Part shown: positions 5,240 to 53,600 of the stretch, in pieces
Layout: each line of letters starts with the position of its first letter
Numbering within the stretch: position 1 is the stretch's first letter
From: a virus
IMG/VR virus record: IMGVR_UViG_3300032236_000879
Span: 1-64,000 of that record
Reading direction: 5' to 3' (one strand)
Length of the DNA stretch: 64,000 nt
Translations under genes and position numbers: made by a program
Notes under the pieces: model-generated
Seen by the model: only the letters and a program-made list of their open reading frames with translations
Told to the model about the DNA's origin: nothing
Database searches by the model: none

Positions 5240-5878
5240 TTATAATTTGAGTTCATTGATGAGACGCTTTACTTCCTCACCTAAGAATCTCTGTACTTTT
5301 TTGTCACCACCTGCGCCTTTAGCGATCTCAAGAATTTTATGACCGTGCTTCATATTCATGACGCCTTCATAAATTGCCTTAGGATACGCATTAGGTGCGC
5401 TCGGTTGAGCAACGATATCGACAGTGATTATTTCAAAATCACTGACACGGCCATCCATGTCGTTCACATTACCTGATCCACGACTGGAAACGCCTAGCTT
5501 AACTCCCGACTCTAACATAGTCTTCACGAGTTGACCCATTGGAGTTGGGAGAATTTTCAGTTTCCCGAAACCATTTGGACCGTCCATCCACATACGAGTG
5601 ATCATATGAGATACGCGATCCAGATTAATCTTTAGATCGTCTGGGTGATCTACTTCGCCCAGAACAGAATAACCTTCTTCAATTTGTTTATTCAAAGTAT
5701 CTACAGCATTCTCGATTTCTTTGACGGGGTAAACACGCTCATTTGCGTTCTTTACCCCGCCTTGAATGAAAATACCTTTCATATAGAGAGACTTTAGTTT
5801 GTCGTCGCCTTCAGTGATGGCTTCGACAACTATGCCTGCTCTATCGAAAGTTAGATTTTCCCTAAGATACAAAGCCAT
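5240..5878 (-). CDS. gp21: prohead protease (gp21-like)
   Basis: GIFIQGGVKNANERVYP, LGEVDHP, LGVSSRGSG, DIVAQPSAPNAYP motifs. Confidence 0.95.
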   Translation of the reverse strand: MALYLRENLTFDRAGIVVEAITEGDDKLKSLYMKGIFIQGGVKNANERVYPVKEIENAVDTLNKQIEEGYSVLGEVDHPDDLKINLDRVSHMITRMWMDGPNGFGKLKILPTPMGQLVKTMLESGVKLGVSSRGSGNVNDMDGRVSDFEIITVDIVAQPSAPNAYPKAIYEGVMNMKHGHKILEIAKGAGGDKKVQRFLGEEVKRLINELKL

Positions 5879-5894
5879 TTGTTCTCAGATTCCC

Positions 5895-6755
5895 TTAACG
5901 AACTGGTCTACGAGAAGAACGTTTTCTTGACTCTGCGACCGGGCTCTTAGTATTCGCTGCTCCATCCTTCTTTACAGGAGCTGGAGTCTTGCTTAGATCG
6001 ATTCCTCTGTGACCTGGTGCATTCTGGAATTTACCTGCACCCGGTAGATCGCGTTCACCCTTTGAATACATGTTGCTTGGGCCCTTTGGTCCAGTTGGAA
6101 CTGTTTCAGCAGCACCGGAGAATCTTACTGGTCTGCTTGCCATTCCTGCTTGACCTGCATTTGCGGCTGAACCTACTGCGCTTCTTCTCTGTGCGCCATT
6201 GTCGCCGTGAGACATAGAAACCTTCTGAAGCTGAACAGCTTCCATCATTGCTTCTTCGTCTTCTTCGTCACCTTCTTCGTCTTCCATATCTTCATCACCG
6301 AAGTCTTCTTCTTCATCACCGAAGTCTTCTTCTTCATCACCGAAGTCTTCGTCGTGATCGTCTCCGCCCATGATTTCTTCGAACTCAGCCATCAACTGGT
6401 CGAGCTTGTCTTCGATACGAATTACGGCACTTTCAATTTCTTCATGTTCGATGTCTTCTTCATCATGATCCATTTCATAATCATTCATGAAGTCTTCTTC
6501 TTCATCTTCCATATCATCATCGAAGTCGATGTCTGATTCGTCATCTTCCATGACGCCTGATTCTTCAGCATTGATCTCATCAAGTAGATCACCTACTTGA
6601 CCGCCCATCATACCTTCTTCCATATCTTCGTCCATAAGTGACTCAAAGATTTCACGTGACTTTTCAACAACGATTTCATGGAATAGTTCACGAGCTTGAG
6701 CTACGTCTTCATTGATGATAAGATCATGCAATTGCTTAAATTTTCTAATGTCCAT
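5895..6755 (-). CDS. acidic prohead core/internal protein
   Basis: Very D/E-rich, in the head operon between portal and protease; AGGAGA SD; CATAAGTA late promoter at 6792-6799(-). Confidence 0.6.
   Translation of the reverse strand: MDIRKFKQLHDLIINEDVAQARELFHEIVVEKSREIFESLMDEDMEEGMMGGQVGDLLDEINAEESGVMEDDESDIDFDDDMEDEEEDFMNDYEMDHDEEDIEHEEIESAVIRIEDKLDQLMAEFEEIMGGDDHDEDFGDEEEDFGDEEEDFGDEDMEDEEGDEEDEEAMMEAVQLQKVSMSHGDNGAQRRSAVGSAANAGQAGMASRPVRFSGAAETVPTGPKGPSNMYSKGERDLPGAGKFQNAPGHRGIDLSKTPAPVKKDGAANTKSPVAESRKRSSRRPVR
6289..6350. repeat. 21-bp tandem repeat x3 (encodes EEDFGDE)
   Basis: TCTTCATCACCGAAGTCTTCT repeated at 6289, 6310, 6331. Confidence 0.9.
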
Positions 6756-16157: not shown

Positions 16158-16985
16158 ATGGATAACAACCCATTAAAGCAGTATTTCAGAAGACCATCAG
16201 TTTACATGAAATTGCCGTCACAAGGTCAAGGATATCCGGTAGGAGCACTAGACCTACCGGTAACAGGAGAAATTCCAGTTTACCCTATGACAGCAATCGA
16301 CGAGATTACTACTAGAACTCCTGACGCTTTATTTAACGGTACTGCAATTGCAGACTTGATAGCTAGCTGTTTGCCTAATATTAAGGATCCTTGGGCAGTT
16401 CCTAATGTTGATCTTGATGCTATTTTGGTTGCAATTAAAGCAGCATCTTCTCCTTCAGGTGAAATGGATTTAGATACAGCATGTCCTAATTGCAATGAAG
16501 TATCTACATATAAAGTGAATCTTTCAGCCATACTCACTTCAATTGCTAGCCCGGATTTTTCTAAAGAATTAGAAATGGGTGAACTCAGGGTGAAGTTGAA
16601 GGCAGTCAGTTTTAAGGACATAAACACTGCATCTATCAAACAATTTGAATTCCAAAAAATAGCTACCCAGATCGAATCGATAGAAGATGATACACAGCGT
16701 AACAAATTATTAAAAGAATCATTGGAGAAGGTAACTGAACTCACAATGGAGTTAGTATGTCATGCAATTGAATATATTCAAACACCAAACGTGAAGGTAG
16801 ATCAAAAAGAATATATTCTTGAATTCTTAAGGCAGTGTGATCGTAATGTATATGTCACTATTAGAGACCGCAGTTCAGAATTACGTCAGGTGAGCGAAAT
16901 TAAACCAGTAAATATCACATGCGATAGTTGCCAGCACCAGTACGAACAATCAATCACACTAAATCCAACGGATTTTTTCGACTAA
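16158..16985 (+). CDS. baseplate hub assembly protein (gp26-like)
   Basis: NPLKQYFRRP, VYPMTAIDE, DLDAILVAIKAAS, two CxxC motifs, C-terminal DFF. Confidence 0.75.
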   Translation: MDNNPLKQYFRRPSVYMKLPSQGQGYPVGALDLPVTGEIPVYPMTAIDEITTRTPDALFNGTAIADLIASCLPNIKDPWAVPNVDLDAILVAIKAASSPSGEMDLDTACPNCNEVSTYKVNLSAILTSIASPDFSKELEMGELRVKLKAVSFKDINTASIKQFEFQKIATQIESIEDDTQRNKLLKESLEKVTELTMELVCHAIEYIQTPNVKVDQKEYILEFLRQCDRNVYVTIRDRSSELRQVSEIKPVNITCDSCQHQYEQSITLNPTDFFD

Positions 16986-17209
16986 CGCTTCTTAAATCTG
17001 TGCCCGAACAGATTAAGAAGCTGATTGATTCATACGAAGAAGAGGTTGATTCTATCAAGAAATCATCATTGGAAATGGCCTGGCACATGAGGGGCGGTGC
17101 TACATATGAAGATATTTTGAACATGTCTTTTCAAGAAAGACTAAGCATCAATAAGATGATAGAAGAACATCTAGAGATCACAAAAAAATCACAGATGCCA
17201 TATTTCTAG
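16979..17209 (+). CDS. gp51-like small hub chaperone, probably expressed by -1 frameshift from the upstream ORF
   Basis: WHMRGGATYEDILNMSFQER motif; no SD-supported start; overlaps upstream ORF in the -1 frame at T TTT TTC. Confidence 0.6.
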   Translation, partial: RLTLLKSVPEQIKKLIDSYEEEVDSIKKSSLEMAWHMRGGATYEDILNMSFQERLSINKMIEEHLEITKKSQMPYF

Positions 17210-17248
17210 TGAGGGGAACTATTCATTTAGTTCTCCTTACTTTTTGTT
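17209..17248 (+). terminator. intrinsic terminator
   Basis: 13-bp stem GTGAGGGGAACTA/TAGTTCTCCTTAC (two G-U pairs) followed by TTTTTGTT. Confidence 0.75.
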
Positions 17249-17363
17249 CTCATTGGGAGTTGTCCTTCAGACAACTTATACCTCACTCACTCCGTTCGTT
17301 TCGGTATATTCTTTTTCATTCTCTATAAAGGTAACTCGTCATTTAATCTTTTCTTTAAACCAA

Positions 17364-17735
17364 TTGCCGGTTTAGAGCCATGGTAGTGCTATTCAGCACT
17401 ACCAATGGTTTAGGACACTGCCATGGCCCGTCACCTTTGCCGTCTATCCCCCGTCAATCTAGCTTTTTGTGCTGATTGACGCCACCGGTTGCCCTGTAAA
17501 GTTCGCTGGGGCTGTAGTGAGGCTATCTTTCGATTCCTCGGCAACGCATGTTCTGTGACTTCAAGACAGAATAGATCACAGACTCATTCAGGGTTCGTCT
17601 ACCTAACGAGAGCCCTGTCGGTATTCCGTAGACTGTTACATCCACGCACTTTGAAGGAATGCACCTTCGACTCCAGAATCCGTTCGCAGTGTTTCATGCG
17701 TTCTCAAGGAGAGTCGAGCTACCCCGACCAAACAG
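17364..17735 (-). ncRNA. candidate large structured non-coding RNA (family not recognised)
   Basis: No credible ORF, GC-richer than its flanks, about ten nested helices; most G-U pairs and a GAAA tetraloop favour the minus strand. Confidence 0.6.
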
Positions 17736-17759
17736 CTATGTAGGGTTCTGTGGGTTTTA

Positions 17760-18323
17760 TTAAGTGTTGATTGTTAGTACGTTTGCGCTAGACTTGGTGT
17801 CAATATGTGTACTAGATGAGCCAGAATAGACTTTAAGAAGGTCTTTGTTGAGCTTAAAGAAGTGATCAAATTCAATAATAACCCAGTCCCCTAACTTAGC
17901 GGAACTGTAATAGACAAAGTTGTCCGTAACCCAAGTGCATCGTGTTTGCACAGCAACGTACTTGCCCTTGCGGTTGAACTTCATGAATAGGATGTTGCAG
18001 TCATCATCTTCTGCTACATCCATCAGTTGTCCTAACCAAGATTCAAGTTGCTTGCAATCGCCTGACAACAGCAGATGAAAGGGGAAGTCACCATATGACT
18101 TACACTCTGCATTAAACTTAGTAAAGGTTTGTCCAGGAACGATATCGCCTTTGAAACTACGAACCTGTCCCTCATGCAAATACTGCTTGCGAGCTTGATT
18201 CTTTCCTCCCACATAAGCGCCTGAGCCAGGAGCCCTGATGAAACTCTCTTTGTAGAGATCAGAGAGGTACTTTGCGACCTCTCTTTCGAACGATGAACCT
18301 TTGGCTTTACTTGGTGACGGCAT
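17760..18323 (-). CDS. PD-(D/E)XK nuclease, Holliday junction resolvase-like
   Basis: SKAKGSSFEREVAKYL...GSGA...GDIVP...AECKSY, Hjc-like signature. Confidence 0.75.
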   Translation of the reverse strand: MPSPSKAKGSSFEREVAKYLSDLYKESFIRAPGSGAYVGGKNQARKQYLHEGQVRSFKGDIVPGQTFTKFNAECKSYGDFPFHLLLSGDCKQLESWLGQLMDVAEDDDCNILFMKFNRKGKYVAVQTRCTWVTDNFVYYSSAKLGDWVIIEFDHFFKLNKDLLKVYSGSSSTHIDTKSSANVLTINT

Positions 18324-18331
18324 ACTATAAT

Positions 18332-18985
18332 TTATCTTTCTATTAAGGGGGTGGGAATATTTTTACAACGATCACCGTGCCAACGTTTCATTACGCCAAC
18401 ACCGCCTTCGGTACCGCAATGCGGACACATTGTTGTGGTCTGTTTTCCTTTTGTCTTACCCAAACTTTCGGAAGACCGTCTAGCTCTCATTTCTGCCGCT
18501 TTTTCGGCTCCAAATATTTCTTCATATGATTTGCCTTTTTTCTTAGCTGACATTAATGCTTTGGTTTCGTTATTATGAGTTTTATCATAGAATGGGTTTA
18601 ACGAACCCTTCATTCTAGAACTGTGATTCTTTGCATTTTGTTCTCTCGCTACCGCATATTCTTCCGGAGAGATCGTATAGGTTCGAGCTTGGTTTTGGCT
18701 TTGTTTATTCATCATTCTCCAAAGTGCAGACCACATTTTTCCGTTTTCTGTGCCGGTGGTCATTTCTATTAGAAGTTTATGACAAGTGAAATGTTCAGCA
18801 GCAGTTAACCATACCTTGTTGCTGATCTTATCTTCTCCGCCCAAAGATTTAGGAACGATATGATGATCTTCGATATATCCTCGTACTAACATTGCATCTT
18901 TCTTTTTCATAGTTCTGGGGCAGACAGTTTCGGCATTATTAATAATGTTATAATACTGATCATATGCGGCATTTTTGATAAACAT
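18332..18985 (-). CDS. HNH homing endonuclease with NUMOD3 motif
   Basis: EDHHIVPKSLGGED..SNKVWLTAAEHFTCH; NPFYDKTHNNETKALMS; CPHC...RWHGDRC; likely start ATG 18985 with AGGAG SD. Confidence 0.85.
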   Translation of the reverse strand: MFIKNAAYDQYYNIINNAETVCPRTMKKKDAMLVRGYIEDHHIVPKSLGGEDKISNKVWLTAAEHFTCHKLLIEMTTGTENGKMWSALWRMMNKQSQNQARTYTISPEEYAVAREQNAKNHSSRMKGSLNPFYDKTHNNETKALMSAKKKGKSYEEIFGAEKAAEMRARRSSESLGKTKGKQTTTMCPHCGTEGGVGVMKRWHGDRCKNIPTPLIER

Positions 18986-19031
18986 AAGTTCTCCTATAGG
19001 ATTCACTTCTTATTTATCTTTTATTTGTCAT

Positions 19032-35663: not shown

Positions 35664-38600
35664 ATGGCTAGAATTAGAACACTTAATTTTCTTCCAGAGG
35701 TTTTTCAAACTCCTCCTAACGCTCAGTTTTTGGCAGCGACATTAGATCAACTCGTAAATTCTCCCAACGTCGCTAACGTTCAAGGTTATGTGGGAAGTAA
35801 GTTTGGCACCGGCGTCAATGCTACAGATGCTTATGTGCCCGAACCTACTAAAGCTCGTGTTGACTATCAGTTAGATCCTGCAGTGGTCTTCACCAAACCA
35901 AACGAAACGACTGCAAATGATTTTGTGACTTATCCTGGAATCCTTGATGCTATTAAATTAGCAGGAGGAATCACAGATGATAACAGCAAGTTGTTCACTA
36001 GCCAATTTTATTCATGGGATTCATTCACTAACTTAGATCCATTGATTAATTTCAATCAGTACTATTGGCTACCGGATGGTCCTCCTGCAGTAACAGTTGC
36101 AGCTTCTACTATATTCTCCAAAGAAGCCTTTGTTGTAACTAGTAATACCAATTCATATAGTATTGTAAGAGAAGGTTCTACTACTTCAAATGCTAATCCT
36201 CCGATCACCTTATTGAGAGGAGGTACATATACTTTTGCAGTCAATCAGAATACCCGATTCTGGATTCAAGGGGCTCCGGGCATATCAGGTTATAGTCCAA
36301 CCCAGCCTAATCAACCGGTTCGTGATGTTTATGGTGTAACGAATAACGGAGTAGAAACTGGATTTGTGACATTCGAAGTTCCGCTGAAGAATGCACAGGA
36401 TGAATTTAATTTTCCAAATACTGTGAATGTCGATGTGATCAGTACTACATCATTTGATAACATCAATGGTCAGTTCGTTAATTCATTTGCAGGCATCGAC
36501 GGTATCACATCACTATTAGGATTGACTGTTGCATTCTACAACACGCCGCAAGAAATCGCATACATCTCTTCCTACTACGGTGAGACCTCGTATGATACAA
36601 ACGATCCTGCGTTAGTTCCTCCGGCTACGCTTTCTATTGCTAGCTGTAATACGAGCGCATTCACCCTTGCATCAGGAAATACTAGTGGTTTGGTTGTAGG
36701 TGGTACTGTAACTTTCACGGGAACAGTATTCGGTGGAGTCAATCCTGGTCAAGTTTATTTTATCAATAGCATTCCTAGCTCTAATTCATTCACTATCGCA
36801 ACTTCATTGAATGGTCCGACCCTAACCCTGACTGCTGCATCAGGCAGCATGACTGCAAACGTCAATCAGGGCTTGTATGAAGATGGATATAATGCAAACA
36901 TTAATACAACATTCTTCACTGTAACCTATATCGGTGATCCTACTAATCCAATCATTCGACTAGTACCGTCAGGTGCGATTCCGTCAAACACGAAGATCGT
37001 GCCCGTATATGGAGTAGAGTGGAACAATAGACCATTCTATCTAGATGTTGCCAACAATCTAGAATTGATTCCTTATATTAGTGCTCCGCTTGATGTTCTT
37101 TACTATCAGGATGGAACTGATCCTAATAAAGTGGGAACTATTCACCTAATCGAAAGCAATCTTAATAATACTATCGACGTTGATCTACAGATCCTAGGTA
37201 AAAAGAATTATACTGCTCCAAATGGGGTTGTATTCACTAATGGGTTGAAAGTAGAATTTGACGGCGACGTTATTCCTACAAGTTATCTGACTGGACAATA
37301 CTATGTTCAGGGTGTAGGTACAGCCATCGAATTAGTAAATGTAGAGACTCTCGTTGTTCCGGAAAAGTTCAGTGAAGGTGAATATATCGCATGGGATGTA
37401 ACAAGCTGGGATATCGGAAATTATGACATCAGCCTTGACATTCCAGTGCTTGCTGATTATATTGTAATTGCGCGTAATGCAATCAGCAAGAATGCATGGG
37501 CACGAAGCAATCGTTGGTTCCATATTGATGTGATCAATGCAACTGCAAAATATAATAATGATCCTACTATTGTCACAACGTATGCAACTGCTGCCAATAA
37601 AGCAGCAAGACCTATTATTGAATTCTATCCGAATCTAAAACTGTTTGATTCTGGTGCTACTGGTGTAAATCCAGTAGACTTTATTGATACTACCAATACT
37701 GATGCGCTCTCGACTGTTCCCGGATCAGTCGCATATTATCCGGATGTTCAAGTGTATTCGACTGCATCTGCTACTATTACTGCTAGCCCTACGACTCCTG
37801 TCTCTGCCGGTTCATTCGTTGTAGGAAACACCTACCAAATCAGTACATATGGTACAACGACTGACTGGAATGCGATTGCTGGAACTTCATATCAAAACTA
37901 CGCAGTAGGAAGCAGATTTGTGTGCGTGAATGCGGGTTCTGGTAATGGTTTTGCAGTACCATTGGCAACATCAACTACTATCACAGTTGCAGCAAGTGCA
38001 CTTAATGGTACACTTGCTGATTATATGTTTATTGCTGACTCTACTGGTATATTACCTGCTAATTCACAGATCACTAATATTTCAGGAACAACTACATTAA
38101 CATTGACAGTAACTTGGGCAATTCCTCAGAATGTTGTCGGAGCATCAGGCGTAATTCTATATGCGAGTGATACTACTGTCAATAACTACGGACTATTTCC
38201 GGGCGCTCGTGTTATCTTTGCAGGAGATAGTGATCCTAACGTAAGAAATAAAATCTATGTTTCTAATTTCTCTGTGATCGCACCTTCTACTACACCAACC
38301 ATTACTTTGATTGTAGCAGAAGATGGTATAATCGGACCAGACACACAAACAGTAATAACCCGGGGTTATACAAATGCTGGATTGAGTTACTGGTTTGATG
38401 GCTTATATTGGAATCAAGCACAGCAGAAAGTATATTTGAACCAAGCTCCAAAGTTTGATGTATTTGATGCGAACGGTGTAAGCTTCGGAGATAGCACAGT
38501 ATATCCTAGCACGACTTTTGCAGGCTCTAAGTTATTTGCTTACGGTCTAGGGACAGGAACTAAAGACCCTGTTTTAGGGTTCCCGATTCGTTATAGTTCA

Positions 38601-41600
38601 GTATCTAACCTAGGGGATATCAGCTTTGATGTCTCGCTAAATTCTGATACGTTTAACTACGTCTATAATAGTAATCCAGTAACACAAAAAGTAAACACCG
38701 GATATGTTTATAATTATACCAATGCAGCGACTTACAAGAGATTGTTAGGTTGGGAAACTGCAATCGCGCCTAGCCAGCAGTATCAGATTCTGGAGTTTAA
38801 TTTTGTTCCAGGAACCACACAAACATCTAATCAGTTCTTGTGTGATATTGCACCTCTTGCTCCTTTGGGGCCACATGAAACTGGTTGGCCAAGAGTCAAG
38901 GTGTACATCAATAATGAATACCAAGATACAAATACATACACCTATACAACAACTGATACTACCACTACTGTAATACTCAATACTCTTCCTACAGTAAAAA
39001 CTGTGATTCAGATTTTGATTCTAAGTGATCAAGTGAGCAAGGCAGGTTATTATCAGATTCCGTTGAATCTAAGCAACAATCCATTCAACACTGACTTGAC
39101 AGTTGTTAATACAGGTGATATTAGAACACAGTATCAAGATATCTTTATCAATTCTCCTATCGTTACAGGAACTATTTTCGGTACAAATAACTTCAGAGAT
39201 TGCGGTGATCTAGTACCTTATGGCACTAAGATCATTCAGAACAGTGCTTCACTTGTGTTGCCTGGAATGTCCCTACGTAATCCGCAATATAATCTATTCA
39301 ATGCTCTGCAATTTAACTCTAATGAATACATCAAGTACAAGCAATTGATCGTAGACACTGTGCAGAACACAGATTATGTTCAGCGATATACTCCTTCACA
39401 AATTTTGGATGATGCGATCTCACAGATTGCCGCAGCTAAAAGTGAAGTAAATGCATTCTTCTGGTCAGACATGCTACCAAATCAGAATTCATATATTAGC
39501 AATACATATGTCTTTAATAATGATTTGGATAGATCACAGTATCCATTGAGTCATGTATATAATTTCGAGAGTGCAAATTATAATGGTGTTCTAGTTTATT
39601 TGACCCGTAATATCGGTGGAATCCTTGCTGAAAGACAATTGATTACTGGTGTCGAATATGTCATTAGTACTGATTCACCCACGTTGACCATCACTATTCC
39701 AATGTTGCAAGGTGACAATGTAACAATCAAAGAATATAATCAGACTTATGGTTCTTATGTACCAAATACTCCAACTAAGTTAGGTATATATCCTAAGTTT
39801 ATTCCGGGAGTTGTACTTGATCCGAATTACACGATCCCTACTTACTTCATTCAAGGTCATGACGGATCATATACCAAACTATACGGTGATTATATTCCTG
39901 AAGCTAATGTACTAGTTGATTTCAGAGATCAGGCACTATTGGAATTTGAACAGAGAGTCTATAACAACCTCAAGTTAAGCACAGAGACACCTATCAAGCG
40001 TTATGAAGTTGTTCCTGGATTCTTTAGGACTTCAACATATACTTGGGATCAGTATCTACAAATCTATTCGACTCAGTTTCTAAATTGGATCGGTCAGAAT
40101 CGAATCGATTATAAGACACAGTACTTCTCACGAGTAAATGAGTTCACTTACAACTATACTAATTCTACAAGTAAAGTAGACAATAATCCTATCGTCCAGG
40201 GATACTGGAGAGGACTATACGAATACTACTATGATACTACTACTCCAAACACTACTCCATGGGAGATGTTAGGATTTGAGATCATGCCAGATTGGTGGAC
40301 CTCTCGCTACGGTCCCGCTCCGTATACGAGTGATAACGGAATCCTCTGGGGCGACCTAGAGCAGGGACTAGTATGGAATAACGGTGAACCTTATATCAAT
40401 CCTCTCGTAGCTCGACCTGGCTTATCAAAGATCATTCCAGTTGACTCTAATGGAAATCTACTCTCTCCTTATAAAGTGATCGTAGGTAATTATAATCCAA
40501 GCACATTCAATAAAGATTGGAAAGTCGGTGATGATGCTCCTGCTGAATTGAGCTATCGTCGTAGTTCAACTTATCCGTTCGACTTGACTAGAATCTTTGC
40601 ACTAACCCGTCCTGCTGAATTCTACAATCTCTGTGTTGATCTGGATCACTACAAATATAATGTAGAGTTCAATCAGTATCTTGTTGATGATAGAAGCCAT
40701 CTAGTCCCAGCAAATATCCAAGTATACGGTAATGGTATAGCAAAGACCAGCTATCTAAACTGGATCGTTGATTTTGAAAAGCAACAAGGAATTGATTCTA
40801 CTACTGAATTAACAACATCACTCAATAACCTAGATGTAAGACTAGTATATCGTCTTGCTGGTTATAGTGATAAGTCATTGCTTCAGTTTTATGTTGAAAA
40901 ACCATCACCTAGCAGTACCAACGCATCACTGTTGATTCCAAATGAAAGCTATGCTATTCTACTATATGATAACCAAGCATTTGATCGCATCATGTTTAGC
41001 GGTGTCATTGTTCAGCAGAATGATTCATACTGGACAGTATATGGTAACTCACAGACTAATGCGTACTTCCAGATACTTGATCCAAACTTCAATGGAAATT
41101 GGACAACACTAACTACTGAAAATATATCAGTGAAGGTAGCACAATCATACAGCACTAATGTTTCTCTAGTGCCATATGGTACTAAGTTCTACAGCACACA
41201 AGACTTAGCACAATTCCTGATCTCATACGGTAAATATCTAGAATCAAAAGGAATGGTTTTTGATGCAATCGAAAATGGAATTCATGTCACTTGGCAACAG
41301 ATGGTGTATGAATATCTATACTGGGTTCAGACAGGATGGTCAATCGGAAGTATAATCACATTGAATCCTGCTGCAACAACAATGGATATCAATCAGCCGA
41401 GTGCCATCGTTCAACCATTGACGATCCAACAGCAGAATTTTGTGTTGAATCAAAATCTATATCCTATCAAGCTCAACGATCTCTGCATCAATCGTGATGG
41501 TACATTGCTTCATATGCACACGTTGAATGCAGGAGATACTATGGCTTATGCACAGTTCAACTTGAGCAATTTTGAACATGGTATCGTGTTTGATAACTAT

Positions 41601-44600
41601 ACCCTATTCAATGACACCATCTATAATTTGATAACCGGACTTTATCAGAATAGAATCTTTGTTCGAGGACAAAAGACTGCTGAATGGAACGGAACGGTCA
41701 ATGCTTGGGGATTCATTCTAAATCAGACTGATATTCACGAATTCAATTCTTTCACGAAATATACTAAGGGTGAGATTGTAAAATACAAAAATAAGTATTG
41801 GACTTCATTAACCATCATTGAACCATCCGGCGTCTTTGATGAGACAAAGTGGAAGCAGATCAATTACAGCAAGATTCAGCAAGGAATGTTTGCTAACCCA
41901 AGCACTCGTGCATATGAAAGCACGTTGTATTATGATGCACAGAAGGCTAATCTACACCAAGATGCTGATTTGTTATCCTTCTCATTGATCGGCTATCGTC
42001 CGCGTGATTATCTCGCACTCATTGACTTGACTGATACTGCACAAGTTCAAGTCTACAAGAACATGATTAGAAATAAAGGTACGCTCAATGCATTGAATGC
42101 ATTCAAGGGAGCTAACCTTCCACAGGGCGGAATTCAGTACGACATTTATGAGAACTGGTCTATTCTAACAGGCACATACGGCGGTGTGCTAAATGAAAAT
42201 TTTGTAGATTTCAGGCTTCAACAAGCAGACATGACAGGTGATCCTGCAATTGTCAGCCTAACCAACGGTAACGGTACAGCAGGAACGATGCAAGAAGTGT
42301 CGATATATGATCTATACAACTATGGCACGGAGATCACTTCACCTGACATTCTTAGTACTACAACAGCAACACCTACACAGATTCTATATCCTAGTGCAGG
42401 ATACGTCAACTTCAATGATGTCAAGATGTCAACATATTTCTATTCGGGATTGCCTACCGCAACAGATATAAATGGCAAGATCATTCCTATTCAGAATTTC
42501 TATGTCGGTGAATTCATCTGGATGGCAAACTTCAAAGAGAAGTGGGGCGTCTTTAGATGGAAGCCTATCGGTCAAGTAACCCAGGTCAGAAATAATCAAA
42601 ACCAAACAGCAACAGTCACGTTCAACACTCCGCACGGATTGAGCAAGTTAGATCCAATGGCAATCATCAACTTTGCTACATCGGTTGACGGGTACTATAT
42701 CGTGACTGACGTTGTTAATTTATATGAAGTCATCATTAATCTATCAATCGTTGGTGCTAATCAGACAACTGTTCAAGGGCGTGGGCTGGGCTTCGCATTC
42801 GAATCACAGCGTGTTGCGACTCCAAGTGAGATTGAAACACTTAATTTAACTGAGAATGAATTCATCAAGAACCTAGTGTGGGTAGATGAAAATAATGACG
42901 GTGGTTGGGCAGTCTATGAGAAGAGCATCAATTACCTATATCAAAATCAATTACAGCTTCCAGAATCTACTACATATGGTTCCGCAGTCGCATACACTGA
43001 TACATCAGGATATCTCGTAGGGGATGCGGGCGCTAACCGTGTTTATCGATATTCTTATAACAATGTATCCGGTCAATCGACACTCACTCAAACTGTTGTA
43101 CCATACGGTGGATCCATTGCTACCTCATTCGGATCAAATATCGCATATGCTAAGAATATCTATGTGATCGGTGCTAATGGTCCAGGTGAAGATGACATTG
43201 GTAATTTTATCTATGTAATAAATGATAGCATCATTTCAACTGATATGCTAAAATATCAGAATGATTACATCTATGCGTCAGCCGCTGACATCGCAATGTC
43301 AGATGATGCTAATTGGCTATATGTGTCTGATATTGCAAATGGGCTTGTTTTAGCATATCGCAGAGATAACATCACATTTAATGCAGGGTATTTCACTTCA
43401 GGTGAAACTTACATTATCGATAGTTTAGGCACTACTGATTTTACTGCTATTGGTGCTATACAAAACAAAGTTGGAATTGCATTTATTGCAACTGGTCCTG
43501 GTACAGGAACAGGTGTCGCAACACAAGCATCATACAAGCTAGCGCACATCATCAACTGTGCTGATTTGGGACTGACTGCTGATAGTAAATTCGGTAATTC
43601 TCTATCAACCAACTATGATGGTAGTGTTCTGATGATAGGTGCTCCTGATGTAGCTGATACTAGTCCGGTTCTTGCTAACTGGGGTGCGGCATATGTTTAT
43701 CAGCGAGCAGTACAAACATTTGAAGCTCAGTATTCGAGCGTTCCTTATCAACCGTTCGCATTTAATCTAGCCTGGACACCCCAGACAAACACATTCCTTC
43801 CTCCGCAGACATTGACTTCGACTACTGTTATTGGAAATTACATTTATGTTAATGATGCAACTTATCTTAGAATAAACATGCCTGTCATGTTCATCGCTGG
43901 AAGTGCAGGTGCTGGATTAAATAATAGCGGAATCAATCCATACGTCACTTATTATATTGCAGATATTATAGAAAACACAATTGCATTAAAGACCTCACGT
44001 TCAACTAGCACTATTGTTAGCTTGATTGATGGTACAATCACATGCACTATGTATCCGCAATATGATGTGAACGGAAGCACTAGGGTTTATGTTTCTGTTA
44101 ACGGCAAAGTGGTTCAAGATAACAACTATGCATTAGCCGGAAGTACTCTGTACTATACAGGTAATTTACAAGTAGGTGACATTGTTAACGTTAGTGGTAC
44201 TGATTTCTTTATGGCGCAAGAATTTAATTCTGAGTACAACAATAGACCTGATGTATATTTTGGTACTTCTGTTGCAGTCACAAAGTATGGATCAACTGTT
44301 CTTGTAGGTTCACCGTATGAAATCGATACAGACGGTAAAGAAGGTGCAGTATATAGTTATACAAACGGCGGTGCAAAATATGGTCTAGTGATCGGTACAT
44401 CACCTTGTAATATCACATCTGCTAGAACATTATTAATTAATGGGTTTGCAGTATACTTACCTATCGGAAATGCCGCTGTAGTGGCAAATGCGATAAATGG
44501 TTCAAATATTAATAATATACAAGCAGCCGCAACTGCTGATAATAAGATCATGATTCAGCTTATTAATAGTTCTCTGGCAGGAGTTGATAACAAATTGTTA

Positions 44601-47600
44601 TTGACAACATTTGACAGTAATCTATTTGGTGAGCTGGGTGTGGAACTATTTACTAATACTCAGATTATCAAGTGCCCGCATCAATTTGGTCCAACTGAGT
44701 TCGGGTACAAAGTAAAAACAAATCATGCAAATAGTATCGTAATCTCTGCTCCTGTTGGTACACGATATGAAGGTACAGTATTTGATTTTACAGATGACAA
44801 TAATCTAGACAATGATACTGTGTTCGATAATAATGCGACTCAGTTTGTAGATACTTATCCAAATGCCGGTGCAGTATATATGTTTGAGTATCTCTCAAAT
44901 TATAATGAAAATCTGGCAAATCCTGGAACATGGACTTACGCACAAAGCACAAATGATATCTCAACTGATTATGGATATAATCCTCAATACGGTGCAGCAC
45001 TAGATTTCAATCAATATAATGTGATGATAGGTTCTCCGAACTTCCAACCATATACTCTTGGTGGAGAAGTCATCGTTTATAATAATGCTACAGGCGCGAA
45101 TGACTGGACAGTCTATAGACAGAGTGCACCTGTTGTAGATATCAACAAGGTTCAGAATACACAACTGTATAGTGCTTCTACTAATAACACACTCACCAAT
45201 CTTGACTACATCGATCCTCTGCAAAATAAACTTCTAGGTGCTGCTCGTGAGAATCTCGACTTTGTGACAGGAGTAGATCCTGCTGTTTATAATGTGAGCT
45301 ATAACGCAGAAGCTGGCCCAGTCTGGGGAGCACCTCAAGTGGGTAAGCTATGGTTTGATACAGCAAACGTGAGATGGGTGAACTATCATCAGAATGATGT
45401 AGTATACAATAGCAAATATTGGGGAGAAGTATTCCCTGGATCAGACGTTGCAGTCTATAGTTGGATCGCTAGCTTCATTCCGCCTCAGAACTACCAAGGA
45501 CCCGGCGTTCCGTATGATGTGAATCAATTTGTCGTCAACAATACAATGAACTCATCAAACGTTGTTGTTCCTGTTTATTATTTCTGGGTACGTAACACTA
45601 ATGTAATTTTCAGCAAGACAGGTAAAACGTTATCTGATTCTGTCGTTCAGAATTACATTTCTAATCCTCGTACTTCCGGTATTCCATTCATGGCTCCGGT
45701 ATTACCGAACACATTCTCTATCTATAATTCAGGTAATTTCTTCAATGCAGATGACACGGTGTTCCATATTGGATTTGCGAATGGATCGTCACAGGATATC
45801 GTTCACAACGAATACTCATTGATCAGAGAAAATTTTGCAGATGATTTCTTGCCTGGATTCCCTAATACAAATAATGCACACAATGAATCAGGAGTTCACG
45901 GTGATATCGGAAAAGAATATATCTACGGTGCACCATCGTCGCTATACGCTAAGATGATCGACTCTCTTGCAGGATGTACTCCTGCAGGAAATATCGTACC
46001 TGATCCATTCTTACCTTTGGCAGTTCAATCAGGTGTTCTAGTTCGCCCAAGCCAGAGCTTCTTCTATGATAGATTTGCGGCATTAGATAATTACTTGTCA
46101 TATGCCAACAGCGTATTGATCAATTATCCAATCTTTGAATTACGTGAAGAACTCTCGTTCTTGTTCACATCCGGAACTTATTTTAATACTCCGGATTATT
46201 GGAGCTATGTTGATTGGTGGGCTACCGGTTATAATAATAGCACAAAGGCATCAGTGCAAGTAGCAGTGTATGCTGATCTATCCACATTGAATGTTCCGGT
46301 TGGTACTATCGCAAAAGTAAATCAAAATGGTGCAGGCAAGTGGGAAGTATATATTCAATCATACACCAATATTTGGACAAGAATTGGATTACAGAACGGA
46401 ACACTTCAGTTCAGCAGTTCTCTCTGGGATTACTCGGCTGGTAAGTTAGGTTGGTCAGGAAACTTCTTTGACACAACTCCGTTTGATCTCTATCCTAGTG
46501 AAGAAACCCGAAGCATCGTTCGTGCATTGAACGAACAGATTTATATTGGTGATCTATTGATTCATAGAAACAAGAGCTTGATCTTGCTATTTGAATACAT
46601 TCAATCTGAAACAATTGAATCTCAGAATTTCTTACCTTGGTTAAACAAGACTTCATTGGTTGATGTTGCTCACACCATCCGTGAACTGCTTCCTTATGAA
46701 GTATATAAAACAGATGATCAAGTATTCTTATCTGGATATGTCAATGAAGCCAAACCATATCGTGTTGTCATTAAGGACTTCTTATTCAAATATACAAAAA
46801 CTGATGTATTTGAAGGTGACATAACTGACTTTGATCTTCCTGCAATCTACGATTCAGTAAATCAACAATTCGTATCACCACAGTTAATCTATACAACCGA
46901 TACTAGCAGCGATTATGAATTTAATACTACTAGTCAAATCTGGCAGAATGTAAACTATTCTCAGTGGTTCCAACACTACGGTCTATCAGTAACTGGACAA
47001 CCTGAGTTCCCGATCACAATTTTAAGTTCATATCTAAATCGTAGATCAACTTATATTATTGTAGATAATGCACACGGTTTCCCAACTAACGGTATCATAA
47101 CAATTGGAACAGAACAGATCAGCTATTCATATGTTGATCGTGCCCTTAATATCATAGGTGGACTGACTAGAGGGGTGAATCAAACTACTCCAGTAGATCA
47201 TATTCCAGGAGAACAAATCATCATTGATCTTCCTGCTGTGATACTATTGGATGGGGGCCGTGGTTATGCTAATCCGCCTAAAGTGACAGCGGTATTCGAT
47301 ACTACAAAATATCCTGCTCCTAGAGAAGATGCGACATTTGAAGCAGTATTAGGAAATGGTTCTGTCGTTCAGATCAATGTCACTAATCCAGGGAGTGGAT
47401 ATGCAGTTCTACCTGATCTAGTAATCGAACCTGCATTGACTGTCTATTTTGATAACACAAACATCAATTCAAGATTCCATACAATTAACGTGTATGCACC
47501 TGCACTACAAACAGGCGATCTAATTCAATATAGACCTGGAACAGGCGCTGGTGCCGGAAGACTCGCAGATGGGCAGTGGTATTATATCAACGTCCTAGAA

Positions 47601-50600
47601 ACTAGCACGATTTCTGTCATCGGATTGTATACGACTTATAGCAATGCAATCAACGATCAGGATAGAGTAACAATATTCGATAATGGAACAGCCGCAGGGA
47701 TGTCATTGAATCTAGGTGCCAAAGCATCTATCATTACTTCTTCTGCACCTGTTAGAGAAAATATTGTTACACTACGTTTTGATAGAACCTCATATGGATC
47801 AAAGATTCAAGATTGGCAAGCCGATTCGTTCTATGGTGCTTATTTCGCAGGTAGCTATTATAGCGTAGATACAACATCATCTAGTTCTCCGCTTCTATTA
47901 GAAAACACAAATCCTGATATTAATACGATTACTGCTTCTGCCGATGGTGTGACGTTTGAAATTACTAGTGTTTCAAATGAAGAGCAAACCACATGGTCAT
48001 CTTACACTCGATCGGTGGGTAGCACGATTGCTGCAAATAATGCTATCAGACTCATTCCTCAAGATGGGAACAACAATCCATTAGGGGCTGAACCTAATGC
48101 ATCGGGTACGACAATTGGATTCTATGTAGGAATGCCAATCAAGTTCCACGGAACTGTCATCGGTGGAATAGTACAGGATCAAGTTTATTATGTTGCACAG
48201 GTATTGAATGAGATTGATTTTACTATCTCTGCAATATCAGGTGGATCAGTTGTCAGTTTGACAAATTCTACTGCTAATTATCCACTCTATTGCTACACAG
48301 GTGAAGTAGTCGATACTGCGCTCATCAATGTAAACTATCCAGGCATATTAACTGCTACTGCAACTTCAGCCAGTAACAATGCGATCACTGTTCCATTGAC
48401 AGCAATAGGTACAGGCGGTACTAATGGATTCTATCCAGGATTGACTGTATTTTTTACCGGCACTGATTCACAGTTTACTGCATTTGGAAATGCGATCACT
48501 GCAAATGAAGTCTATTATGTTAACACAATAATCGATGAACAAACATTCACTATTTCTGAATTCAAGAATCCTACATTTACGAATGTGCTGCATAATGTTA
48601 CAGAAAATAACACAGTTTACCCTATCACTGCTAATGTAACACAGACTATTGGTTCAACCGATATAGTTGTTGTAGATTCTACGCAAGACTTTAATCTACA
48701 TGATCCTGTGATCTTTAATTCAATGGTTGTCTCTGGGAACCCAGTAACAACATTCGGTGGAATCGTTTCGGGAACAGTGTACTACGTAAGTCAAATTGTC
48801 AACGGTACTGAAATGAAGATTTCCCAGACATCGACTGGGGTAACATATAATCTATCAGATCAAACAGGTACAGCGATTGCTACTAACCAAAGTAACGTAG
48901 TTCAGCTTACAACTGCCACTGGTCAATTGACCCTTAATGTTGCATTGCCAGTAAGCCCGGGACAAGTCAATGGACAAAAATTAAAGTTCTATCAAACATC
49001 AACCCAGTTTACTGGAATAAACACAGGTGTTATTAGCAACCTAATCAAAACAAGTGTTGATGCTACTATTGGTACTGTAAACAAGATTGCAGTTGGAACA
49101 ACAACTAATTTCTATACTAATATGCCTGTGCAGTTTGAGGTTGCAACAGGTGGGTTGCTTACAGGAACAACTTACTATGTCATAGATTATACAGGCAATG
49201 GTGGCATTACTCCTACATTACAGGTTGTTGTTTCAGCTACTTCTTCGACTGGAAATAAATTGATCTGTAAGTCTGGAACTAATACTGGTGACTTATATGT
49301 AAATATGCCATTGATATTCTCCGGTACCGGACTCGGAGGAATCATCATCGGTGAAGTATACTACGTCAAAAGTGTAGTAGATAGCACACACTTCACGGTC
49401 TCGCTATCTCCGGGCGGAGCTACATTAACTTTAGCAAATGACTCAGGGTACATGTTAGGTACCGGGGATTCTTATATCACTGTTTCACTCACACCCGGTG
49501 GTTCTCTCGTATCATTGTCTACTAGCACAACCGCTTCAACATTAGATCAGATTGTCACTGCTACTCCTACATTTGATATTTCTTATATACTCGGTGGATA
49601 TAGAGCAATCATTGCAAACGGCGGAACAGGTTTTGCAGTAGATAACGTGATCACTATTAGTGGTACTGCGGTCGGCGGAGTATCCCCTGCAAATGATATT
49701 ATAATAACAGTTGCTGCGGTTGACACAAATGGTGCAATAACCAGTATATCTCTTGCAGGTAATCCGCCCGACATTGAGTTGAGTTATTATGTGAAAGTAG
49801 TTTCTGCAACAGGATTAGAACTCTACCAAGATTCACTTTTATCTATTCCAGTAAACGGTAAGACATTACCATATACAGGATTTACAAGTGCTAATGTAAC
49901 TCAAACAAGTAGCACCGGAAATATTATTACAGTATCAAGTTCTACTGCATTCAGTATAAATGATGAAGTCATTTTTACTGGAAACGTGATCGGTAATATC
50001 GTATTAGGTCAACCTTACTACGTGATCTCAAAGCCATCATCAACACAGATCAGAGTATCACAATTGCCAAATGGTTCACCGTTCAATCCAGGCAATGCAA
50101 CAGGATCATGCTTAGTGACGAAGCCAGGAAGCTTTGCATATCTACCTGAACCATTCTACTTCCAACCATCTATCATCAGATACAATAACAGGCTATATGA
50201 ATGCTTAGTATCAAATAATGATCCTGAGTTCGTGTTCGGTAAATGGCAATTGATTGATTCGGGTGCTCGCAATATCAATGCAATGGACAGAGTCATTGGT
50301 TACTATCAACCAACTGCAAATATGCCAGGCAAAGATTTAACACAATTGTTCGAGGGCGTTTCATATCCAAACCCAATCTATTATGGTAATGCTTTCCAAC
50401 CATCACAGCAATTCGAGCTAGATACATTATTACAAGATCAACCATTCTACCCTACCGGAGTTCAACTTACTTCAGTCGTATACAATAACGGTGAATACTA
50501 TGCTGCATCAAATCTAACAGATTATTCAGCAGTATTGTATAGTACAGACAACGTAAATTGGGCATTGACTAAATTGAGTAGCGTGAATGTACACACAACT

Positions 50601-53600
50601 GATATCATTTATCACAATAGTGTCTATGTGATGACTTCGAATAATTCTGCAACACCTATCTTTAGAAGTAGCAATGGAATCGATTGGAGCACTAACGGAT
50701 ACTTCACTCCTTGGGGAGCAGACGGTTGGTCTGATTTCAACTATGATATGACTTCACTGAATGTTGCTGCACTTGCATTAAACAGTGTAACGACATTTAA
50801 TAACTTCTGGTTTGCAGCAGGTGATAGTATCGTGTCTAGCAATGACACATATGTCTGGGGCAAGGTACATTCTTATCCTTCTGCAAACGCAGTGACACTA
50901 TATAGCATTGCTTCTGTTTCGATTCCTAATTTTACAGGATTGATTGCAGTAGGTAAAGGGTTGAGACTCGACTATTCTACTGGAACAACTCAGCTAGTCC
51001 CTACAGATATTATCTCAACTAGTACAGACGGGTTGATCTGGCAAGACCTTGCCTCGCTCACTGATAAAACATTCCGCGCAGTGGCAGCTAATACAAACAG
51101 AATCACTGTTGTTGGTGACAGCGGAGTTATCTACTACTCTACTGATGGAATAAACTTCTTAGGATTGAATGAAGCAACAGTAACTAACGTAGATGACGCG
51201 AATAACATTCTATCGTTAACCAACACTGCTGGGCTGACCGTAGGGGATACTATTAGATTCACTACTGCATTTTCATCTATTCTAGCAGGAACAACATATT
51301 TTGTCAAGAGCATCATCAGCCCGACAAGAATAACAATTTCTGCTACATTAGGCGGTGCCACTAAAACATTGACTCCTTATGCTATCAATAGTCAAATCAT
51401 CGCATATAAGTATGATCCAGCTAATCCAAATCCGAATGCATTGTACAATATCATCTATGCTAATGATCTCTGGGTAGCAATCGGTGCTGCAGGAACAATC
51501 AAGACTTCTTCAGATGGTATGTCATGGACTGTACGTTCATCAGGTACAACACATAATCTGAACGGTATTATTTGGTCAGGTACAGAATTCACAGTAGTAG
51601 GTGATAACAATACAGTAATAACTTCTACTGATGGCATCACTTGGTCGGGCTCAACGATATTCAGTGTCTTGCCTTCAACATATGATGTCAAGGGAGCAGA
51701 TTTCCAATACGGATATGCACCGGAAGAACTCGTTGCAGGAAATGTTCGTGATGATCTAGCGATGACAGTAGTCACCCGTCCCGGAACAAACTGGGATGCA
51801 GCAGAATATTCAAACGTTGGATATAATGTTATATCTATTGAGGTTGCACCGAAAACACAAACACAAACTATCTATAACTTTGATCGTATTGTTCAAGTTC
51901 CAGTACAGGTATCAGTACAAGTACTAGATGCATCTACTATGTTAGGAACAACACTATCACCGACTCAGTATAGTGTAGACTGGGTGAACAAAAATATCAT
52001 CCTAAACTCTCCTATCTCATTCACTCCTGACATGCAGAAGTTGAGGATTGATATATATGAAGTTGGAAATGGGGAACAGCTAGTAAAAGCAAGTACACAT
52101 AATGATCCGATCAGAACTAACGTAGATACCGGATTTAACGAGATTTACTTAAATTGTAATTACAGTGCTAACATCTTTAATGGTAGTGGTGTGATCAAAC
52201 CCGGTTCATTTGATCTAACAGTGACTGCTGTTGCAACAGATAGCATTACCAATTCAATAACGTGCGATGATGTATCCCAGTTTTCAATTGGACAAGCGGT
52301 GACATTTACAGGGGTGGTATTTGGAAACCTACAAACCAATACCACTTATTACATCAAATCAATCAGTATGATAACTGAATCTATCACAGTATCATTATCA
52401 TATGATCCTATTACAGGAATCGCAGGACCTACTACAAACTTGACCACCGATACAGGAACAATGTCTGTTAACCTAGCATACGGTTCAGATATTCCTTGGA
52501 CTACTCCTTATGTAGTTCACAATGGAACTAGACTTGTTCAAGGTTACTCAAGTCAAGTGACAGGAACGTCTTCTATAACCAATACCGTCATCACTAATTC
52601 TACTGCTGGTATGACTGTAGGAATGCCAGTAACATTCAGTAAGAGTGTGTTTGGTGTGCTTTCTCCTATAACAAGATACTACGTAGCATCAATCATAGAT
52701 AATAATAATTTCACTGTTTCTGCAACTCCTAATGGATCAACAGTGACCCTTACTGATGCAGCAGGTGCAGCATATTATATCACTAATGATTTCGCATTTG
52801 GGTTACAGCCAAACAAAATTCAAGCAACACTCATATTTGCAACTGATACATATACTCGTGCAAATGATTATATTGCTTACTCTGTGTTCGGGGAATCTGA
52901 ACCAGCAGAATACGGATATACTGTTCCGGAAAGACAAGAATTTGTAGCGAACGGAACTACAGTAGCATTCACCTTAGGTAACTATGTCGGTGGTGATAAC
53001 CCAACAAATGCAATCGTAGAGATCAACGGGATTCGTCAATCGTCATCCAAATACACTATTAGCTTTGGTACTAATAGTGTTATATTTGCAACACCTCCTG
53101 CAAATGGTGCGATTGTCGCAGTCACGAGCTACAATGTCACTGATCGTCAATATCTAAATAGCCAATACGGTATCACAGGTAATGTTGGAAGTGCATTTGC
53201 TACTTTTGTGGTAGGACAAACTAACAACGTGACCGGAACATGGGATCAAAATTCACCGTCCGCGCAGACATGGGATGAGAATTCTCCTTCAATTATCTCG
53301 TGGGATGAGCAACAAAATTGGTTGACATTAAGTTCAGGTACTACAGGAGTATTGCACGTAAACGATCCTATCATCTTTAGTGCTCCTACTATCGGTGGAC
53401 TCGTTGCCGGACAAACATACTATGTGACTCAGATTCTTGACACAAGTAATTTTGTGATTTCTGCTACATTGGGTGGTCCGGCAGTCGTATTAACTAACGA
53501 TACCGGATCAATGACTGCAAATGCGAATGCGTTGATCGTTGCTCAGATCACTAACATAAACAATAACATTACATCTCCTATTGCAGATACAGTTGCTACT

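Follow-up and report, generated by a model that had tools for sequence, protein, structure and literature searches.

What is encoded in a gene-free gap of about 550 nucleotides (nt), lying between two convergent gene blocks of an uncultured phage, is the question addressed here. The window, that is, the whole stretch of DNA analysed, comprises 64,000 nt (positions 1 to 64,000) of the IMG/VR virus record IMGVR_UViG_3300032236_000879, which has 83,246 bases and is rated 23% complete. Its gene content is that of a T4-like phage. A sequence-only reading of the window had proposed a large structured RNA at positions 17364-17735. We found that the gap harbours a real non-coding RNA (ncRNA), conserved in position among hundreds of giant T4-like phages that have not been cultured, and that it is a structured RNA of the minus strand is close to certain. 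This RNA carries two short words, A and B, which stay identical to each other and yet are free to change.

The proposal of a structured, GC-rich stretch poor in open reading frames was borne out in the window and in its relatives. The guanine plus cytosine (GC) content is 0.44-0.51 across positions 17300-17799 versus 0.35-0.41 in the flanks, and none of 100 dinucleotide shuffles folds as well as either strand (z of -4.61 for the minus strand and -5.04 for the plus strand). With the two flanking proteins as queries, 130 related loci were collected, and blastn detected the gap sequence in 98 of them, 63 being distinct. A pattern built from an invariant hairpin of the RNA added at least 120 further IMG/VR stretches, and a profile hidden Markov model (nhmmer) matched 215 out of 250 loci. 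Full-length copies of the RNA numbered 196, of which 127 are distinct, with 57-83% identity to the window copy. The flanking proteins drop to 35-50% identity, so that the RNA region is more conserved than the neighbouring genes. In the conservation profile, the sharply conserved block spans 17364-17735, the extent that had been proposed. Related records carrying the RNA are 360-525 kb long and rated complete, which places it in a jumbo-phage lineage. Among cultured phages (50,697 phage records), blastn returned no match for the region. In bacterial and archaeal genomes, one per species, thirteen stretches match the hairpin pattern; eight of the thirteen were scored by nhmmer, each for the hairpin part alone, and no full-length copy was detected. 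Full-text literature searches revealed no description of this RNA.

The alignment of the 127 distinct sequences was annotated with a structure that has 86 pairs in 15 helices, two pseudoknots among them. Standard pairs occupy 92.0% of the cells, versus 78.6% in shuffled alignments (none of 500 reaches the observed value). Changes on both sides occur in 63 of the 86 pairs, compared with a shuffle mean of 49.9 (again 0 of 500), and the covariation score is 0.413 versus 0.170. Covariation among the homologues supports the fold. Two helices, read as plus strand in 57 homologues, contain 36 A-C against 4 G-T cells, and 44 A-C against none. An A-C exception to Watson-Crick pairing in the plus-strand reading corresponds to G-U on the opposite strand; it is therefore the minus strand that pairs, and it does so in the manner of an RNA. 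These 80 A-C versus 4 G-T cells agree with the earlier hint that G-U extensions favour the minus strand, and they disfavour the single-stranded DNA or origin structure offered as an alternative, because the exceptions are RNA-type G-U pairs of one strand. The RNA folds compactly: a 5' domain is followed by a central multi-helix junction, which two pseudoknots lock, and by a 3' domain with a hairpin. Its elements are the following, in approximate 5' to 3' order of the minus strand.

17364-17737, minus strand: conserved RNA core, 5' end near 17737 and last conserved word ending near 17363 (conservation profile, nhmmer, pair counts).
17713-17728, minus strand: hairpin H1, GUCGGG/CUCGAC, 6 of 6 pairs double-changed, yet 66% of cells paired.
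17671-17711, minus strand: helix H2, CUCC (17711-17708) with GGAG (17674-17671), 100% paired, rare double changes in 2 of 4 pairs.
17627-17646, minus strand: hairpin H5, 8 of 8 pairs changed on both sides.
17483-17623, minus strand: central domain, closed by UACCG (17623-17619) with CGGUG (17487-17483), 98.7% paired, 3 of 5 pairs compensatory.
17589-17617, minus strand: helix H6, CAGGG/CCCUG, with conserved loop words GGGCAAUCG and GCGAACCC, 99.8% paired, 4 of 5 compensatory.
17548-17587, minus strand: helices H7a and H7, AUG/CAU and UCUGUGAU/GUCACAGA, 98.7% paired, 11 of 11 compensatory.
17569-17564 with 17445-17440, minus strand: pseudoknot 2, CUGUCU/AGACGG, 96.8% paired, 5 of 6 compensatory.
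17488-17545, minus strand: helix H8, GUUGCC/GGCAAC, 96.5% paired, 4 of 6 compensatory.
17539-17536 with 17522-17519, minus strand: variable hairpin inside H8, GAGG/CCUC, 77% paired.
17511-17508 with 17451-17448, minus strand: pseudoknot 1, CCCC/GGGG, 95.5% paired, 4 of 4 compensatory.
17452-17481, minus strand: helix H9, CGUCAAUC/GAUUGACG with inner AGC/GCU, about 93% paired, 11 of 11 compensatory.
17375-17429, minus strand: helix H10, GGGCCAU (17429-17423) with AUGGCUC (17381-17375), about 80% paired, no double-changed pair, doubtful or alternative.
17382-17403, minus strand: near-invariant hairpin H11, GGUAGUGCU/AGCACUACC, between the twin words, 96% paired.
17519-17514 and 17388-17383, minus strand: two copies of CACUAC, both complementary to GUAGUG at 17402-17397.
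17298-17267 and 17266-17248, strand not assigned: tail hairpins X (with a conserved loop) and Y, from a consensus fold over 120 tails.

Five of the main helices of the sequence-only reading were confirmed overall. The pairings CGTCAATC/GATTGACG, TCTGTGA/TCACAGA, CAGGG/CCCTG and GTTGCC/GGCAAC show compensatory changes in both the set of 57 and the set of 127 homologues, and the 10-bp hairpin TGGTAGTGCT/AGCACTACCA is genuine, yet nearly invariant. Others held in part. GAGCCATGG/CCATGGCCC can pair in the window copy; in the family its changes are one-sided, about 80% of the cells are paired, and it overlaps the 10-bp hairpin by 2 nt. From TCGACTC/GAGTCGA, the part CUCC/GGAG is kept family-wide, and its extension falls partly in a lineage-specific insert. 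The stem with an ATC-GAAA-GAT loop falls within a hairpin that varies in the family. CCGGT/ACCGG, proposed to close a domain, is replaced by another pairing: position 17370 varies freely against an invariant partner, and 17487-17483 pairs with 17623-17619 instead. GTCGG/CCGAC is not kept either, with Watson-Crick pairs in 174 of 285 cells (57 homologues). Both pseudoknots, the covarying hairpin at 17646-17627 and the twin repeats had been missed.

Helix H2 encloses a variable hairpin and the invariant words UUGAG and UCU. A separate hairpin of 20 nt, at 17670-17651, is a lineage-specific insert. The low pairing of H1 is due to poor alignment at that place. The loop of H7 contains the 5' strand of pseudoknot 2. 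Variation in H11 consists mainly of minus-strand G-U pairs (13, 2 and 8 cells at three pairs), and ten rows break five pairs jointly, which are probably one misaligned group. Word A apparently lies in a loop closed by GGN...N'CC, in which N-N' is U-A, G-C or G-U, or C-G when inspected by eye; such a local hairpin would compete with H10. Alternative pairings around CCAUGG, noted already in the sequence-only reading, do exist. The pairing ACUAC/GUAGU has five conserved complementary bases without variation, and because both CACUAC copies and GUAGUG are invariant, covariation cannot choose the partner. A conformational switch through alternative pairings, as proposed earlier, is possible. Word B is followed by an AU-rich spacer and then by the tail hairpins X and Y, where 54 G-U versus 44 A-C cells fit either strand. 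These hairpins may terminate the RNA or the convergent operon. The predicted length of the RNA is about 370 nt, and would reach about 490 nt if both tail hairpins belong to it.

The most unusual property of this RNA was found in its 3' domain, in two words recognised by mutual information and identity counts.

17426-17418, minus strand: twin word A, N-C-AU-GGCA-R, with N at 17426.
17370-17363, minus strand: twin word B, N-C-GGCA-A-U, with N at 17370.

When mutual information was calculated over the 127 sequences, helix pairs ranked first, and positions 17426 and 17370, which do not form a base pair, were among the top. Both positions carry the same base in 114 of the 127 sequences (GG 71, CC 20, UU 20 and AA 3), compared with an identity of about 0.4 expected by random pairing from their counts. 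The words, which open at these two positions, flank the near-invariant H11 and the invariant CAUGGCU. Lineage-specific shared words are often longer, such as GGCAAUGU, GGCAAGU, GCAAGUA, CGGUAA, AGUAAU, GAUAAU and GUUGAA. The identity is imperfect, for example in about 15 sequences with GUGCAA versus CGGCAA. A codon/anticodon-like reading, with a tRNA as partner, was set aside: about 15 sequences have unlike bases in A and B where the first codon base would fall.

The search for a complementary partner of the words covered the RNA and its flanks. Exact 8-mer complements per locus gave scattered matches only. Within the RNA, segments able to pair with the shared word correspond mainly to the H8 strand (43 of 97), the sole complementary strand in the RNA, which does not covary with the words. 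Pairing of 7-mers from -900 to +700 nt revealed a weak bin inside the nuclease gene located upstream of the RNA (13 of 125, versus 3 in the control). A consistently placed complementary third site was found neither in the RNA nor in the flanks searched. An identity rule of this kind is familiar from the repeats used in template jumping, from the cores of recombination sites, and from take-off and landing codons that match.

A second RNA class with the same rule occupies the same place in related phages. Thirty-five loci lacked this RNA; seventeen of them were scanned, and four carry the Rfam motif Polynucleobacter-1 (RF01718) with 77-122 bits, at the same locus and in the same orientation, immediately after a gene for a GIY-YIG-only protein of 142-144 amino acids (aa). 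In the sister RNA, the 141-nt Rfam model is followed by about 300 nt more of conserved sequence, which finishes with the two tail hairpins and the loop word seen here. A word taken from this extension identified at least 120 more stretches, and 98 distinct copies were aligned.

Sister-class loci: L103 7980-8334; L124; L126 6061-6195 and downstream; L128 1631-1766 and downstream; L253-L372.

The 3' domain of the sister RNA consists of a word, about 20 nt, a covarying hairpin, the invariant AGUGUGAC, and a second copy of the word at a distance of 52 nt from the first. Both copies of this 7-mer, RSAURAN, agree in 105 of 106 distinct loci, with eight variants, compared with about 0.17 expected by random pairing. 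No third copy, complement, complementary column, or enrichment of copies or complements of the own variant was detected in the sister class. The gene upstream encodes a GIY-YIG protein in 86 of 92 loci, and a small nuclease of either type in 87 of 92.

Similar to the RNA of the window, Polynucleobacter-1 thus has the locus, the strand, a small upstream nuclease gene, twin words around a hairpin, and the tail hairpins, which are the features expected of a wider functional class. However, RF01718 gave no match at E up to 10 in 17100-17900, the profile of the present RNA found nothing in sister loci, and the words differ (RSAURAN in the sister class, NCGGCAA here). What is shared is architecture, not homology. 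It is nonetheless likely that both RNAs belong to the same functional class. A table of Weinberg et al. 2010 (PMC2864571) gives the motif as a possible cis-regulatory RNA from Burkholderiales and fresh water. The Rfam model of 141 nt seems to cover no more than the 5' third of a phage RNA of about 450 nt, and both the label 'sRNA / possible cis-regulatory' (small RNA) and the model look incomplete. The tail loop word, of the GAACGAAGUGAG / GAGCGAUAGCGA type, is common to both classes, and a simple terminator would not be expected to have a conserved loop. At two further loci (L100 5046-5656 and L051 4585-5089), a gene-free gap of 500-600 nt lies behind a PDDEXK_15 gene; these gaps match neither RNA class nor any Rfam family, and may hold a third RNA class at the same locus.

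No match to Rfam 15 was obtained at the gathering threshold in the whole 64-kb window. At E up to 10, positions 17100-17900 gave chance-level matches only, such as Glutamine with 14.8 bits (threshold 35) and CsrB with 11.8 bits, the latter outside the element, and Rfam returned nothing for this RNA in the relatives. The sequence-only reading had noted no hallmarks of transfer-messenger RNA (tmRNA), tRNA, RNase P RNA or introns, in agreement with the present results. ARAGORN detected neither tmRNA nor tRNA in the 64 kb, Rfam has no match to them, and models for RNase P RNA and group I or II introns did not match at E up to 10. The element is located between two complete convergent genes, where an intron would require flanking exons of a split gene. 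GOLLD and ROOL were rejected in the absence of a model match and of a tRNA neighbourhood. A protein-coding gene was also rejected: an 84-aa frame of the plus strand is open in just 11 of 127 homologues, and the RNA lengths modulo 3 are distributed as 33, 45 and 49 homologues, which means that length changes ignore triplets. A bypass of the T4 gene 60 type would offer matched words, which are spaced by 56 nt here and by 52 nt in the sister class, but no conserved frame passes through them, and at sister locus L103 only short stop-to-stop frames reach the twin words. For a template-jump ncRNA of a reverse transcriptase, the domain PF00078 was absent in five of five large records carrying the RNA (four rated 100% complete), and control genomes responded to the search.

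The genes around the RNA belong to two blocks that converge on the gap.

16158-16985, plus strand: gp26-type baseplate hub gene, convergent, downstream of the RNA.
17208-17241, plus strand: terminator-like hairpin ending the convergent baseplate-hub operon (consensus scan).
17760-18323, minus strand: gene for a small PDDEXK_15 nuclease (Pfam E 9.3e-25), directly upstream of the RNA.
18332-19006, minus strand: HNH/NUMOD3 homing endonuclease gene, between the gp46 and nuclease genes.

The gp26-type gene lies convergent and downstream of the RNA in 194 of 194 loci. A frame of 93 codons at 16928-17209 overlaps its end and is kept in all 194 related loci; this frame is a genuine coding segment, whatever its expression mode. 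The left-reading block contains gp46- and gp47-like genes beyond the HNH gene. The latter is present in just 5 of 181 related loci, and looks like a recent mobile insertion. Upstream DNA was sufficient at 181 loci. In 180 of them the RNA is directly preceded by the PDDEXK gene, which has the same orientation and is separated from it by a median of 22 nt, and gp46 comes after that gene at 174 of these loci. No solved structure for the nuclease was found by sequence. The sole locus of this RNA without the PDDEXK gene, L194, has in the same slot a gene for a 147-aa SegE-type GIY-YIG-only protein. Just upstream of that gene, L194 carries frames with radical SAM and SPASM domains (5786-6681), which are unusual in this gene block. 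At L049, the sister RNA is located behind a PDDEXK_15 gene, and Rfam sees no Polynucleobacter-1 there. These two exceptions indicate that RNA class and nuclease fold have been swapped independently, with the order of a small nuclease followed by a large RNA being kept.

The sequence-only reading had placed a minus-strand phage ncRNA downstream of the gp47-gp46-HNH-nuclease genes, which strand and covariation support. A simple scan detected no terminator between the nuclease gene and the RNA, nor a minus-strand one after the RNA. Words like T4 late promoters precede several late genes, with GATAAATT at 18336-18329 before the nuclease gene. The word (T/G)ATAAATA, which resembles the T4 late promoter, lies a short way upstream of many genes, at window positions 543, 593 and 31684 and before the genes at 23193, 32268, 55199, 61925, 2770, 19006 and 18323, in three cases only 4-7 nt from the start codon. 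Strand, the median gap of 22 nt and the lack of an intervening terminator suggest that the RNA is co-transcribed with the upstream nuclease gene, as the tail of its transcript, and transcription would start at the promoter-like GATAAATT. Elsewhere in the window, a single open frame of 6500 codons (19.5 kb) spans 35664-55166 in the tail/baseplate region.

Our preferred explanation is that the locus produces a minus-strand scaffold RNA with a twin-word specificity element, to which we assign a probability of roughly 45%. The RNA would be made as the tail of the nuclease transcript and would act in trans, with the folded body as scaffold and the twin words as the specificity element. One shared partner might read both words by base pairing or strand exchange; if both words are read by the same partner, a change in one must be made in both. 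This shared-partner mechanism of a trans-acting RNA is put forward tentatively, at somewhat less than even odds. Several points weigh against the explanation. No partner of the twin words was found in the RNA, the flanks or the sister-class columns, and the identity rule could be explained just as well by a partner that is a protein, by a role in processing or by one at the level of DNA. The ends of the RNA, and even its transcription, are predicted from sequence. The control in which the partner was slid by 1-3 columns (34-45% of cells paired) gives too favourable a picture, since these sequences also served to derive the structure, and support for H10 and H1 is weak. Cultured phages PA5oct and SCTP-2 possess a homologous nuclease (43% identity) with neither gap nor RNA behind it, which means that the nuclease does not need the RNA. 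The independent swapping of RNA class and nuclease type also speaks against a tight RNA-protein pair.

The same neighbourhood could mean that the RNA serves the upstream nuclease gene, either as a 3' untranslated region that controls the life or translation of the messenger, or as a shape decoy that restrains the enzyme until packaging. All 181 loci of this RNA and 87 of 92 sister loci have a small nuclease gene directly upstream in the same orientation, with gaps of about 0-22 nt. PDDEXK_15 and GIY-YIG-only proteins are plausible structure-specific nucleases, as judged from their families, and the multi-way junctions of the RNA would suit either fold as a decoy. This service is a serious rival to the preferred explanation, yet unlikely in our view, given that the PA5oct and SCTP-2 homologues have no RNA behind them, that the conserved T4-like core order makes adjacency weak evidence, and that the identity of the two words is left unexplained. 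The words might also be equivalent cleavage or ligation sites of a self-processing RNA, from which a piece of about 56 nt with its hairpin is excised or circularised and the joint restores the original word. The RNA has invariant single-stranded junction words and two pseudoknots, as do many ribozymes, and the spacing of the identical words (56 nt here, 52 nt in the sister class) would fit; with no Rfam ribozyme match and no internal guide that covaries with the words, self-processing seems improbable. A programmable, guide-like address is another use of the words: together with the small nuclease (PDDEXK or GIY-YIG), which would lack a DNA-binding domain, the RNA would direct or license the cutting or exclusion of matching nucleic acid, with targets such as the allele of a competing phage or a branched intermediate and a lineage-specific code, as an RNA-addressed nuclease system of jumbo phages. 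To this address we give a slim chance.

Two further proposals concern the body of the RNA and the DNA beneath it. ROOL and GOLLD exceed this RNA in length, which counts against an architectural RNA that forms homo-oligomers, as reported for ROOL, GOLLD and OLE, with conserved loops and the palindromic words CCAUGG and ACCGGU as contacts. The ACCGGU word, moreover, sits in a covarying intramolecular helix, the twin words are not self-complementary, and there is no tRNA neighbourhood. Nevertheless, the RNA is large and ornate, is borne by a phage and has many invariant loop words, and a cryo-electron microscopy preprint (10.1101/2024.12.08.627333) describes RNA-only complexes for RNAs of this sort. 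An oligomeric role is not favoured, and we rate it as low as self-processing. The 3' part could instead be a DNA-level site, in which an inverted repeat (cruciform) lies between two crossover cores for recombination or replication. Recombination cores have to match each other without being held to a particular sequence, as in the spacers of lox and att sites, where cores must be identical for strand exchange, and the element adjoins the gp46/gp47 and junction nuclease genes. Against this, the exceptions in hairpin H11 (13, 2 and 8 cells) are G-U on the minus strand and A-C mismatches on the other, 52-56 bp is very short for excision, and the remaining element is RNA-like; a DNA-level site is highly improbable.

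Known RNA systems offer partial parallels to the proposed scaffold RNA with twin words. Template-jump RNAs, such as telomerase RNA and the ncRNAs of defence reverse transcriptases, contain two identical direct repeats that are free to drift jointly. They share the identity rule with words A and B and differ in the reverse transcriptase, which was found in none of the five records; 10.64898/2026.06.29.735271 is cited for comparison. Similar to GOLLD (RF01998) and ROOL (RF03087), the present RNA is large, ornate, phage-borne and without an assigned function, but it is smaller, is not located beside tRNA genes, and keeps one syntenic position within a single phage lineage. To our knowledge, twin words that covary in identity have not been described for GOLLD or ROOL. 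The pRNA of phi29 is a structured phage RNA with loops that carry lineage-specific, co-evolving words. The pRNA loops are mutually complementary, whereas words A and B are identical and not complementary.

By sequence, the RNA represents a new class; in architecture it closely resembles Polynucleobacter-1, an orphan Rfam motif. Large pseudoknotted RNA classes are few, and each one solved has yielded new biology. The present RNA occupies one fixed locus throughout an entire lineage of giant lake phages, and it follows an unusual evolutionary rule, in which two words stay identical although either may change with the other. Such a rule suggests a specificity element. If the partner of the words is a nucleic acid, the RNA could represent a new type of addressable RNA in phage-phage or phage-host conflict.

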